64,000 nt of DNA from Deltaproteobacteria bacterium (GCA_023250515.1 JAHFAO010000002.1:2361-66360); one strand, 5' to 3'; shown: positions 12,985 through 15,537, counted from the first letter of the stretch. Notes: generated by a model not told the origin, from the letters alone. Translations and numbers: made by a program.

Positions 12985-15072
12985 TCAATCTGGGCTAATA
13001 AAATCTCGGCTGGGTTCACAAAGCCCCTTGATTGCCTTGAGTTGATGAGTCTGTTCCCTTCTAGACAGATAGTCAGTGAGATTCCCACACATGACTTTGG
13101 CATTGAGTCCATTCCTTCGAGCACGATTGAATATCTCCCCTAACTTGCCTGGCGCTTTTTCCAGCGACCAGAGCATTAAGTTAAGATACGGGGCAGAGTT
13201 CTTGGGGTCATGTTGGATTGCCAGCTCCAAAGAATCAAGTCCTTTGGGGATTTCTCCCCGGTGAAACTCATAGAGGCCAAGTGAATTATAGATAAGCGAA
13301 ATGTTTTTGTTGCTGATAGACTTTGTACCTTCCGGGCCGTAGATTTTGAGATACGTTCTGAGCAAATGAATAGCCTCTATAGAAAGCTGGCGGCTGTCAA
13401 GATATCGAGCCAGGTTGCCTACGTAATGGTCTAGGTAGAGATGCAGGTCAGGATCGTTGGAGGTCTGCGGGGTTGGTCCCAAGTTGTAGAGTCGATCATC
13501 GATTCGCCCTAGATAGGAGGCTATTTGCCCTGCGCTGAGATGTTCGCCAGGCTTGGCGGAAATTTTAAAGATAAAATCTCGATGTGGCAGGATTGGAAGC
13601 CCTATAGATTGGTTGAGTCTTTCCGCGAGCTCCCTATAGACAGTGCGACCGGCGCGTTTATTTTGTATCACCAGTTCGGTGATCAAACGTGACCTATTCT
13701 CAGGAACCTGTCGGATAGGTGGAATGACGAGATTAGGGTGCCTCTCTGAGGTAATATAGTGGAAAGCCCATGGTTTGTTGATCTCGTTGAGGGAGAGAAG
13801 CGAGACATCCTCCCTTAATCGCTCTACATCCTGCAGATACTTGATGTGGAACCATTGGATTTCAGTCATAAACACCGAACCCGGATCCAGACTCCTGAAG
13901 GCAGTGCGGAAAAAGTCCGATGGAAGGTAATAGTCTCGCTTGTTTACCTTGGGATAGGTAAAAAAAACCTGCACGAAAATTAGGCCAAAAAGGCCGATTC
14001 CGACCAGCCTCCAGAGTCGTGATGAAGTTACGTCGCTCCATTTACGGGCGATCCCCAGCAACCTGCAAGTGCCAATACCGAGAAAAAAGGCCAGTACTAA
14101 GTAAGAGGGAAGAAAGGCATCTCCTGATTTCCAGCTCCAGAAGAAGGTGTGGTTGGAAAATAGGATCCATAAGAAGAGAAGGCTTAGTCCCCTTTCTCCC
14201 CTGATGGCTGGAGCGATCCCAAGTAGGATAAGGGCAATCCCTAGCGGCGAAAACTGATGGGCTATCAGACTGAGGTGGTTAAAGATGAGGTAAAAAGGGG
14301 ATGTTGGGCTGCTCTCTGGGAAAACATCAGCAACAAAATCTTTCTGGTCCGTAATCTGGTAGAGAAAGTTTTTTAAGTTCTGCGGGTCGCCCCAATCGTA
14401 AGGTGGATTGGCGAGAGATCGAACTGGCAGATATAGGTAAACCGAAAGCCCCAAGAAGAAGAAGAAGATAGCCCTGATCCATACGCAGGGGTTGCCTGCC
14501 GGCCGGTTGATAAAGTAGATGGCCAGGAGTCCTGGGAGAAAGAGCCCGACAGTGGCGTGATTGCCAGCGGACAGTCCGTAGAGGAAGCCGCTGAGATAGA
14601 GCCAGCGTGGGTCAAACTCATCGAGCCATCGCAGTATAAGGTAAATGAGACCAGCTAAAAAAAGGATGTTTAGCGTGTAAACTTCGGTGCTGATCGCGTT
14701 ATGCCAAACGATGGGTCCTAGGGCAAAGAGGAAAGCCGCTACGATAGAGGAGGTGTGAATATCTGCGCTGGGGGCTAAAGGGTAAAGCCGTCTAATGAGA
14801 AGCCTGAGCGCGGCGCTGAGGAGGAGGACTGAGAGGAGAGAGAAAATAGCCGATGCCAGGTTGGTTTTAAAGGCTATGCTTCCTATTGGGAGAAAGGTGA
14901 GCGGTTTTACCAGAAGGGAGTAGGTAGGAAAGCCTGCCGGATGGGCGATAGAGAGGGTAAGGGCGACGTTGGCAAATTCCGGTGTGTCGCGCCACAGGAT
15001 AGTTGGAGGAAGGGTTAAAAGATAAGTGAAAAAAAATACTGGGACAAAAAAGAGGTAAGAGGAGTGATACAC
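12985..15072 (-). CDS. DUF2723/TMEM260-like GT-C membrane glycosyltransferase with C-terminal TPR-like domain
   Basis: 695-aa ORF. N-terminal about 400 aa is polytopic with a first-loop 'WRDTPEF' acidic motif. The C-terminus has TPR-like repeats ('AIHLLRTYLKIYG...LGLYEFHRGEIPKGLDSLELAIQHDP'). GTG start with no SD, directly after the pilA terminator. Confidence 0.7.
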   Translation of the reverse strand: MYHSSYLFFVPVFFFTYLLTLPPTILWRDTPEFANVALTLSIAHPAGFPTYSLLVKPLTFLPIGSIAFKTNLASAIFSLLSVLLLSAALRLLIRRLYPLAPSADIHTSSIVAAFLFALGPIVWHNAISTEVYTLNILFLAGLIYLILRWLDEFDPRWLYLSGFLYGLSAGNHATVGLFLPGLLAIYFINRPAGNPCVWIRAIFFFFLGLSVYLYLPVRSLANPPYDWGDPQNLKNFLYQITDQKDFVADVFPESSPTSPFYLIFNHLSLIAHQFSPLGIALILLGIAPAIRGERGLSLLFLWILFSNHTFFWSWKSGDAFLPSYLVLAFFLGIGTCRLLGIARKWSDVTSSRLWRLVGIGLFGLIFVQVFFTYPKVNKRDYYLPSDFFRTAFRSLDPGSVFMTEIQWFHIKYLQDVERLREDVSLLSLNEINKPWAFHYITSERHPNLVIPPIRQVPENRSRLITELVIQNKRAGRTVYRELAERLNQSIGLPILPHRDFIFKISAKPGEHLSAGQIASYLGRIDDRLYNLGPTPQTSNDPDLHLYLDHYVGNLARYLDSRQLSIEAIHLLRTYLKIYGPEGTKSISNKNISLIYNSLGLYEFHRGEIPKGLDSLELAIQHDPKNSAPYLNLMLWSLEKAPGKLGEIFNRARRNGLNAKVMCGNLTDYLSRREQTHQLKAIKGLCEPSRDFISPD

Positions 15073-15080
15073 AAAGAAGA

Positions 15081-15123
15081 AAAAGGGGGAACGATTGGTT
15101 TTCTCGTTTCCCCCCTTTTTTTT
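15081..15123 (-). terminator. Intrinsic terminator after pilA (usable on either strand)
   Basis: GGGGGAACGA (15085-15094) pairs with TCGTT(T)CCCCC (15104-15115) across a 9-nt loop. Flanked by an A-run on one side and T8 on the other. On the minus strand it is followed by UUUUUCUUCUUU. Confidence 0.65.
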
Positions 15124-15141
15124 CAGCTATGTTGATGACGT

Positions 15142-15537
15142 TTAACCACAGGCACCGCCTACGGCAGTTATTACACCGGTTGCGCTGCTATAAGTCCATG
15201 TATCCGCACCAGCAGCACAGCTGGCATGCACTGCCGTCAGTGTGAAAGTCGAGGTGCCATCTGTAGCAGTCGTTGTTACATTGTTAGTGGGGTTAAATCC
15301 CGGGGGGCTACCAGAGGTCATAGCTCCGCTTTGGTAATGGTTAAAATCCACAAAATAGGCCTCCTGAGCTGTAGCGACATTTCTCAAATCGGACTGTGCT
15401 TGAGAAGCAAAGCCCCTTCTGCGATAGGCGGCAAACTGTGGAATGGCGATGGCTGCCAGGATGCCGATGATCGCTATAACTACGAGTAGCTCGATGAGGG
15501 TAAACCCCCCTTCGGCCCTTAATCTTAATCTGTTCAT
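15142..15537 (-). CDS. pilA: Type IV pilin (PilA-like major pilin)
   Basis: Prepilin leader 'MNRLRLRAEGG' followed by 'FTLIELLVVIAIIGILAAIAIPQF' (class III signal, Glu5). Ser/Thr-rich C-terminal half with two Cys near the end. AAAGGAG SD lies 7 nt before the ATG at 15537. Confidence 0.85.
   Translation of the reverse strand: MNRLRLRAEGGFTLIELLVVIAIIGILAAIAIPQFAAYRRRGFASQAQSDLRNVATAQEAYFVDFNHYQSGAMTSGSPPGFNPTNNVTTTATDGTSTFTLTAVHASCAAGADTWTYSSATGVITAVGGACG

Follow-up and report, generated by a model that had tools for sequence, protein, structure and literature searches.

The gene that directly follows the type IV pilin gene pilA in a 64-kb stretch of DNA from an uncultured Binatia bacterium (referred to as the window; 64,000 nucleotides of a metagenome-assembled genome (MAG) that is 86% complete) probably codes for a pilin-specific O-glycosyltransferase, which would belong to the TMEM260 branch (DUF2723, PF11028) of the GT-C superfamily. 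On the minus strand, pilB and pilC are followed by a gene for a fusion of a PilS-type sensor, a PAS domain and a sigma-54 activator, by pilA, by a hairpin with a T-tract and finally by an open reading frame (ORF) for a protein of 695 amino acids (Table 1), here called the GT-C protein. The enzyme would most likely work like TfpW of Pseudomonas aeruginosa but belong to the TMEM260 family. We most likely deal with a pilin-adjacent GT-C protein from a family other than TfpW, and a role in pilin modification would be new for the bacterial TMEM260 members. The original prediction, that the DUF2723 protein may glycosylate the adjacent pilin, gains support from comparative genomics: the pairing of a pilin gene with a DUF2723 gene recurs in at least five phyla.

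Conservation of the pilin/DUF2723 gene pair

A pattern-based scan using one genome per species yielded 80 DUF2723 loci. Of these, 62 contain an ORF resembling a type IV pilin within the flanks of about 6 kb. The sequence in front of the GT-C gene was long enough for a closer look in 74 loci, and 52 of them have a pilin gene in the same orientation whose stop codon is less than 400 nt upstream of the GT-C gene, at sequence identities of about 30%. This pilin-linked set covers Nitrospinota, Thermodesulfobacteriota, Nitrospirota (including Manganitrophaceae) and Binatia, as well as MAGs labelled Myxococcota or Deltaproteobacteria and Pseudomonadota MAGs. As a background value, the identical pilin pattern matches nine ORFs in the 3.6-Mb genome of the window, corresponding to about 0.03 per 12 kb. 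All five close orthologues (64–71% identity), which are located on contigs from different samples, have a pilin gene upstream, and this includes each of three close orthologues (64–68% identity) on short metagenome contigs. A search of 60 sampled relatives had returned the orthologue in the same genus only, where it is syntenic; the apparent lack of conservation was overturned by the wider scan, in which the pairing is kept in other phyla. The conservation of the adjacency had been chosen beforehand as the point on which the prediction could fail, and it held up strongly both in the close orthologues (5/5) and in the distant loci (52/74). Related genomes are non-independent observations in these counts. 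Since other genomes show the arrangement again, chance can be ruled out, and the fact that the pair was kept between phyla at a sequence identity of about 30% speaks for a functional tie between the two genes.

The membrane domains were used for a FastTree phylogeny, which was midpoint-rooted for drawing only. Here, a split with a support of 99 sets apart 43 sequences, consisting of 39 pilin-adjacent ones, three without upstream sequence and a single non-adjacent one. This clade covers four phyla at about 30% identity. The other side of the tree contains a pilin-linked Nitrospirota clade together with sequences from Chloroflexota, Bacteroidota, Ignavibacteriota, Chlorobiota and candidate phyla whose genes have no pilin gene immediately upstream. 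Several of the non-adjacent DUF2723 loci have pilin genes a few kb downstream.

The terminator between pilA and the GT-C gene

The strong hairpin terminator that had been proposed to follow pilA was confirmed by folding. The hairpin consists of GGGGGG-AAACGA, a loop of 9 nt and TCGTT-CCCCC, followed by TTTTTCTTCTTT. It reaches −25.4 kcal/mol in a context of 86 nt (z = −3.96), and one of 200 shuffled sequences folded equally well. With a G+C-rich stem directly before a U-tract, it has the make-up of a rho-independent terminator. A simple terminator scan had omitted this hairpin because of its 9-nt loop and its bulge, and folding showed it to be real. The spacer between the two genes comprises 69 nt, with 12 nt between the last base of the hairpin (15085) and the GTG start codon of the GT-C gene, and no promoter-like site was found in it.

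Applying a threshold of −17 kcal/mol or less for hairpins ending in a T-tract, we detected this arrangement in 41 of the 52 pilin/GT-C spacers of the related loci, compared to three of 149 control stretches of equal length taken from inside GT-C genes. Among the close orthologues, the hairpin of the window recurs in locus L119, L122 contains a different one, and in L005 and L120 a short spacer with the ribosome-binding site GGGGAG takes its place; therefore, attenuation is common but not obligatory. In the pilin cassettes of P. aeruginosa, pilin and accessory genes have been described as separated by a terminator, which sets their ratio (PMC11841053). The proposed expression of the GT-C gene by terminator read-through fits both this layout and the conservation of the hairpin.

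Family, fold and conserved residues of the GT-C protein

The polytopic protein of 695 amino acids with a GTG start was recovered as predicted, and the GTG at 15072 is the earliest possible start within an open frame of 713 codons. It is not preceded by a Shine-Dalgarno sequence, and the resulting N-terminus, MYHSSYL, is shared with an orthologue of 66% identity. The protein matches PF11028 over residues 29–190 with 114 bits (cut-off, 24.2 bits; 8.8e-33) and PMT_2 more weakly, below the threshold, whereas no NCBIfam model matched. Its gene is the only PF11028 gene in its own genome. An AlphaFold model built on 35 relatives (predicted local distance difference test (pLDDT), 89.7; predicted template modelling score (pTM), 0.89) comprises a helical membrane core that ends near residue 376, an alpha/beta domain of mixed strands and helices (383–530) and paired helices up to residue 691. 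Foldseek searches of the PDB with the model returned the GT-C enzymes STT3, PglB, ArnT, ALG12, ALG9, Pmt4 and AftA. The TPR-like tail, which was also part of the original prediction, appears as a helical repeat in the model and was recognized by both the fold search, which matched it to the TPR of OGT, and a profile search.

The fold search of the PDB with the model did not return the TMEM260 entries, although they are found by sequence. In a phmmer comparison, residues 16–437 align to residues 39–474 of human TMEM260 (9rql_A) with an E-value of 1.5e-22, and a profile of the 35 relatives reaches 3.9e-61 against the same entry; human TMEM260 is by sequence the sole solved relative of the GT-C membrane domain. 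The acidic motif expected in the first loop is present as W-R-D29-T-P-E32. Residues D29, E32 and H44 align to D52, E55 and H67 of TMEM260 and are conserved in 30 of 30, 29 of 30 and 34 of 34 relatives, respectively, that have a residue at the alignment position. In TMEM260, residues D52, H67, R264, Y267 and D441 are reported to be essential, for D52 and H67 on the basis of mutagenesis, and R355 to be important (bioRxiv 10.64898/2026.03.17.711096). In the split active site, the half that binds the donor is thus clearly conserved.

PilA as the candidate acceptor

PilA consists of 131 amino acids, comprising a leader of 11 (MNRLRLRAEGG, cleaved before FTLIELL) and a mature protein of 120 residues, and its ATG start codon is preceded by AAGGAG. 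Its C-terminal half had been described as rich in Ser and Thr, and these residues indeed make up 32% of positions 56–120 of the mature protein. A motif G-[FYW]-x-x-[S/T] is present at the start of the globular domain in 36 of 53 distinct DUF2723-linked pilins. It reads GFNPT in the PilA of the window (mature residues 69–73), placing T73 at the position of the motif Ser/Thr. Candidate acceptor positions in this protein are T73, S85, T90 and T113, none of which is invariant. In the Binatia pilins, the motif takes the form G-[FY]-N-x-[S/T], which is similar to an N-glycosylation sequon, but x is often Pro.

Candidate donor pathway and partner genes

The gene directly after the GT-C gene codes for a GT2 glycosyltransferase of about 316 amino acids with C-terminal membrane helices in 26 of the related loci, for a YfhO-family protein of about 770 amino acids in 15 loci and for a PMT_2-type GT-C protein in four Thermodesulfobacteriota loci. 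None of these genes is present directly downstream of the GT-C gene in the window. A block of genes on the same strand, about 8.5 kb further (78–7289), codes for a hydrolase, a PMT_2-type GT-C protein, a GT2 protein, a methyltransferase, a GT4 protein and two further methyltransferases. The nearest solved relatives of the GT2 protein are DPMS (5mlz), GtrB (5ekp) and ArnC, all of them polyprenyl-phosphate glycosyltransferases, and it is 53% identical to the GT2 protein encoded directly after the pilin-linked DUF2723 gene in Nitrospinota locus L039. This kinship and the gene order in L039 support the earlier suggestion that the GT2 protein could supply the sugar donor.

The PMT_2 protein, a possible glycan-extending enzyme, shows 36–42% identity to the GT-C proteins encoded directly after DUF2723 in loci L006, L007, L050 and L083 and 46% identity to the product of a gene located about 2 kb after the pilin genes of relative G005, where an orthologue of the hydrolase (68% identity) precedes the PMT_2 gene near the pilins. 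The GT4 protein is 36–39% identical to the product of the second gene after DUF2723 in loci L043, L061, L072 and L079.

Further membrane proteins are encoded after the GT-C gene in the close orthologue loci. In the same-genus genome G001, a gene for a polytopic protein of 495 amino acids (L005, 8053–9540) starts one base past the DUF2723 stop codon; the protein had no Pfam match and may represent a further uncatalogued membrane glycosyltransferase. On the contigs of L120 (3399–4013) and L122 (2576–2797), the gene after DUF2723 codes for a protein with multiple transmembrane (TM) helices that starts with MTTIISLLFFLSGIAGLIYEVVWAKHL.

The slot behind pilA in other Binatia

In other genera of this Binatia family (L105–L118), a gene for a YfhO-family GT-C protein follows pilS/R-pilA in 12 of 14 loci. 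These YfhO proteins (PF09586) comprise about 730–840 amino acids and are encoded on the same strand as pilA. Eight of the ten pilA/YfhO spacers examined contain a hairpin with a T-tract of −15 kcal/mol or less. In L105, L107 and L116, a gene pair for a GT2 protein and a GT-C protein of 540 amino acids converges from the opposite side. Because no match to YfhO was found in the 86% complete genome of the window and none to DUF2723 in the YfhO-bearing Binatia relatives, two unrelated GT-C families appear to use the same slot behind pilA next to very similar pilins. By analogy, this swap resembles the alternative accessory genes of the P. aeruginosa pilin groups, and YfhO-type enzymes may also act on pilins.

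Proposed mechanism

We propose the following course of pilin modification. The PilS/PilR-type sigma-54 activator and the −24/−12 promoter, both of which are present in the sequence, would drive the expression of pilA. Most transcripts would stop at the terminator (15073–15115), and a minority would read through into the GT-C gene; together with the GTG start codon without a ribosome-binding site, this would make the enzyme far less abundant than the pilin. At the cytoplasmic face of the membrane, a GT2 enzyme of the DPM1/GtrB/ArnC type, probably the one encoded at 3609–4517, would load a sugar onto polyprenyl phosphate, as suggested by homology and by the gene order elsewhere, and the lipid-linked sugar would then be flipped across the membrane. 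The GT-C core would bind the donor at the periplasmic face via D29, E32 and H44. Judging from the homology to TMEM260 and the analogy to TfpW, the periplasmic alpha/beta domain and the TPR tail would hold the membrane-anchored pilin by an extended segment, and a Ser or Thr residue in the C-terminal half of PilA would receive the sugar, with E404 occupying the position of the catalytic base (D441 in TMEM260). More speculatively, the PMT_2-type GT-C protein, the GT4 protein and the methyltransferases (78–6285) may extend or modify the glycan.

Comparison with known systems

The closest known system in terms of function and architecture is pilA-tfpW, while the closest by family is TMEM260. TfpW of P. 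aeruginosa, a GT-C protein that combines about 11 TM helices with a large periplasmic TPR domain, glycosylates the pilin, and its gene comes immediately 3′ of pilA (bioRxiv 10.1101/2020.04.19.049825). In the group IV strains Pa5196 and PA7, it is the pilin D-arabinofuranosyl transferase and is co-transcribed with pilA. The GT-C gene of the window is likewise located directly 3′ of the pilin gene, past a terminator, and both proteins combine a GT-C membrane domain with a C-terminal periplasmic TPR domain (here taken from the model), and the first periplasmic loop of each contains an acidic motif. TfpW uses a polyprenyl-phosphate-linked sugar, a donor type which is proposed for the GT-C protein as well. 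Two motifs have been published as conserved among the homologues of TfpW. The first, DDX in loop 1, is lacking in the GT-C protein, and none of the 35 relatives contains a DD within its first 70 residues; the second, the proline-rich motif YX6PFX7P near the TPR domain, is also absent from the GT-C protein and all 35 relatives. The GT-C protein belongs to PF11028/TMEM260, and these two motifs set it apart from TfpW as a probably separate family. The 240 relatives listed, which included those from a second homologue search seeded with a Pseudomonadota MAG member, contain no protein from the TfpW-bearing genera Pseudomonas, Acinetobacter, Kingella, Azotobacter or Teredinibacter, which is weak evidence of a separate family.

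Human TMEM260 (9RQL/9RQM/9RQN) is an O-mannosyltransferase of the endoplasmic reticulum for the IPT domains of plexins, cMET and RON. It is homologous to the GT-C protein over the whole TM domain and shares with it the succession of GT-C core, alpha/beta domain and TPR tail as well as the first-loop residues described above. The bacterial protein differs in facing the periplasm, in its predicted acceptor, a type IV pilin instead of an IPT domain, in its donor lipid, which would be of the undecaprenyl type, and in parts of the active site (see below). The TMEM260 paper itself goes no further than a reference to "distant homologs in bacteria", and our literature search returned no study of a bacterial DUF2723 protein and no paper linking TMEM260 to pilins, consistent with the initial statement that no characterised bacterial DUF2723 enzyme was known.

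The pilin O-oligosaccharyltransferases TfpO/PilO (from group I of P. aeruginosa) and PglL (Neisseria) modify Ser or Thr residues of the major pilin in the periplasm, as is predicted here, and tfpO is also located directly 3′ of pilA. These enzymes differ in belonging to the Wzy_C/O-antigen-ligase family and in transferring preassembled oligosaccharides linked to undecaprenyl pyrophosphate; a Wzy_C domain is absent from the GT-C protein, for which Pfam returned only PF11028 and the sub-threshold PMT_2 match. The three-component systems YfhO/CsbB and GtrB/GtrC, consisting of a GT2 lipid-sugar synthase, a flippase and a GT-C protein, follow the same logic, as the GT2 protein charges polyprenyl phosphate and the GT-C protein transfers the sugar outside the cytoplasm. 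Their known acceptors are teichoic acids or O-antigen instead of proteins, whereas the GT-C protein of the window is of the TMEM260 family.

Points against a pilin glycosyltransferase and alternative explanations

Several observations weigh against the GT-C protein being a pilin-specific O-glycosyltransferase. The column of the catalytic base D441 of TMEM260, to which E404 is aligned, is variable in the 35 relatives (G14, E11, S4, T2, D1) and acidic in only 12 of them. R264, Y267 and R355 of TMEM260 have no clear counterparts; the pairwise alignment places D242, D245 and A328 at these positions. Q243 and K244 are present near the position of R264, with the basic residue shifted by 1–2 positions, and 25 of the 35 relatives contain R243; the loop of residues 240–260 is modelled with a pLDDT below 60. 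The acceptor-activating half of the active site is therefore plausibly conserved at most. In addition, no invariant Ser/Thr column was found among the linked pilins, the putative donor genes are located 8.5 kb from the GT-C gene beyond transporter genes on the opposite strand, and no flippase was identified. Finally, the DUF2723 genes of the deeper family branches (Bacteroidota, Chlorobiota, Ignavibacteriota and some Chloroflexota) have no pilin gene directly upstream, so the linkage to pilins is not universal for PF11028.

The last point also speaks for the main rival explanation, an active GT-C enzyme with an acceptor other than the major pilin, e.g. other periplasmic or surface proteins in the sense of general O-glycosylation, minor pilins, or envelope glycans like exopolysaccharide or lipopolysaccharide. 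Its gene would follow pilA only as a result of co-regulation with the production of pili. It would agree with the block of GT4 and methyltransferase genes in the window, which resembles general glycan synthesis, and with the YfhO and PMT_2/ArnT-type enzymes that accompany the GT-C gene in other loci and are known from lipid and teichoic-acid glycosylation. We nevertheless consider another acceptor unlikely: shared regulation would have to account for the tight, strand-specific position 3′ of pilA, which is kept across phyla at about 30% identity, for the conserved terminator layout and for the substitution of unrelated GT-C families at exactly the same slot in the Binatia, and the precedents TfpW and TfpO, which are placed in the same way, act on the adjacent pilin.

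A non-catalytic accessory protein, in which the TPR domain binds the pilin and aids its assembly in the manner of TfpY or PilF and the GT-C core serves as a membrane scaffold, appears very improbable. TPR proteins do act in pilus assembly, some database entries call relatives "PilF", and the lack of evident counterparts of R264, Y267 and R355 and the variable D441 column would agree with such a protein. Against this stand the first-loop D-x-x-E, the His residue and many core positions that are invariant across 35 distant relatives, which indicates selection on catalysis, and the co-location of a donor-making GT2 gene in 26 loci. It is hardly conceivable that the two genes became neighbours by accident in this genome or that assembly or ORF calling produced the arrangement artificially: the restriction of the orthologue to the same genus among the 60 sampled relatives is outweighed by the same layout on five close orthologue contigs and in 52 of 74 distant loci, with a background of 0.03 pilin-like ORFs per 12 kb. 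A pilin O-glycosyltransferase of the TMEM260 family thus remains our preferred assignment of the GT-C protein.

Gene neighbourhood in the window

The coordinates of the genes and elements discussed are given in Table 1. The sigma-54-type element upstream of pilA is the single match to TGGC-N7-TTGCW in the 64-kb window; about one match per window is expected by chance from the pattern alone, and the weight of this match comes from its position between the sigma-54 activator gene and pilA. The product of the fused activator gene is the probable regulator of pilA, and more than 20 Binatia genomes code for a full-length orthologue (61–92% identity) in front of pilA. Neither a histidine-kinase nor a receiver domain was matched in this protein in the Pfam search, and the single polypeptide would represent a one-component version of the PilS/PilR pair.

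A remnant of a second pilin gene, pilA2, is located downstream of the GT-C gene. It comprises 56 codons, in which MNRSILKDKRG and the following FTLL are joined straight to the last 29 codons (...CGADLWTYSSITGVITDDGTPCE), i.e. the leader is fused to the C-terminal disulphide loop. At the same position, L119 contains an intact gene for a pilin of 134 amino acids with the end ...CGADLWTYNSVTGTVSLPPTPCE, and relative G020 also has a second pilin gene after its GT-C gene. A further ORF on the plus strand (12498–12707) codes for a zinc-ribbon-like product of 69 amino acids with two CxxC pairs, for which no Pfam match was obtained; a near-identical copy differing in a few residues is present at the same position in L119, so that it is probably a real small gene. 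The base composition around the cassette gave no island signature.

Table 1. Genes and sequence elements of the window (positions counted from its first nucleotide).
Feature	Position	Strand	Basis
S-Adenosylmethionine (SAM) methyltransferases (three)	78–896, 872–1687, 2895–3608	−	Pfam
GT4 glycosyltransferase	1693–2892	−	Pfam; same strand block as GT2 and PMT_2
GT2 polyprenyl-phosphate glycosyltransferase, candidate enzyme for the synthesis of the lipid-linked sugar donor	3609–4517	−	PF00535
Second GT-C protein, PMT_2/PMT type, 591 amino acids, gene overlapping that of GT2	4510–6285	−	Pfam
Alpha/beta hydrolase, first gene of the PMT_2-GT2 block	6282–7289	−	Pfam
pilA2 remnant, internally deleted second pilin gene	12748–12918	−	Comparison with L119
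TMEM260-like (DUF2723, PF11028) GT-C protein, candidate pilin O-glycosyltransferase	12985–15072	−	Pfam, AlphaFold, TMEM260 match
Intrinsic-terminator hairpin (15085–15115) with T-tract (15073–15084)	15073–15115	−	Folding
pilA, type IVa major prepilin	15142–15537	−	N_methyl PF07963 (2.4e-8), TIGR02532, Myxococcus PilA model (1.5e-17)
Sigma-54-type −24/−12 promoter element (TGGCCC-N5-TTGCT)	15665–15680	−	128 nt upstream of the pilA ATG
Fused PilS-type 6TM sensor, PAS, sigma-54 AAA+ activator and HTH_8	15865–17928	−	Pfam
pilC, type IV pilus platform protein	17957–19198	−	Pfam T2SSF
pilB, type IV pilus assembly ATPase	19243–20970	−	Pfam T2SSE, MshEN

Implications

The glycosylation of pilins alters phage susceptibility, adhesion and immune recognition, and to our knowledge it is understood for two enzyme families only, both in a few Proteobacteria. 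Human TMEM260 is the product of a disease gene, and its structure and mechanism were described only in 2023–2026; we know of no substrate assigned to the bacterial branch of the family. The module of pilin, GT-C and GT2 genes in Nitrospinota, Nitrospirota, Thermodesulfobacteriota and Binatia gives this orphan family a testable acceptor and a testable donor pathway, and the pilin cassette of the Binatia appears to swap two GT-C families, in parallel to the pilin groups of P. aeruginosa. Extending the assignment beyond the window, the bacterial TMEM260 enzymes could form a third, widespread class of type IV pilin O-glycosyltransferases next to TfpW and TfpO/PglL, organized as a pilA-terminator-GT-C-GT2 module and interchangeable with YfhO-type GT-C proteins, a generalization for which we see belief and doubt in balance. 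If it is true, YfhO-type enzymes would also be pilin glycosyltransferases, and animal TMEM260 would descend from a family with pilus-glycosylating bacterial members.

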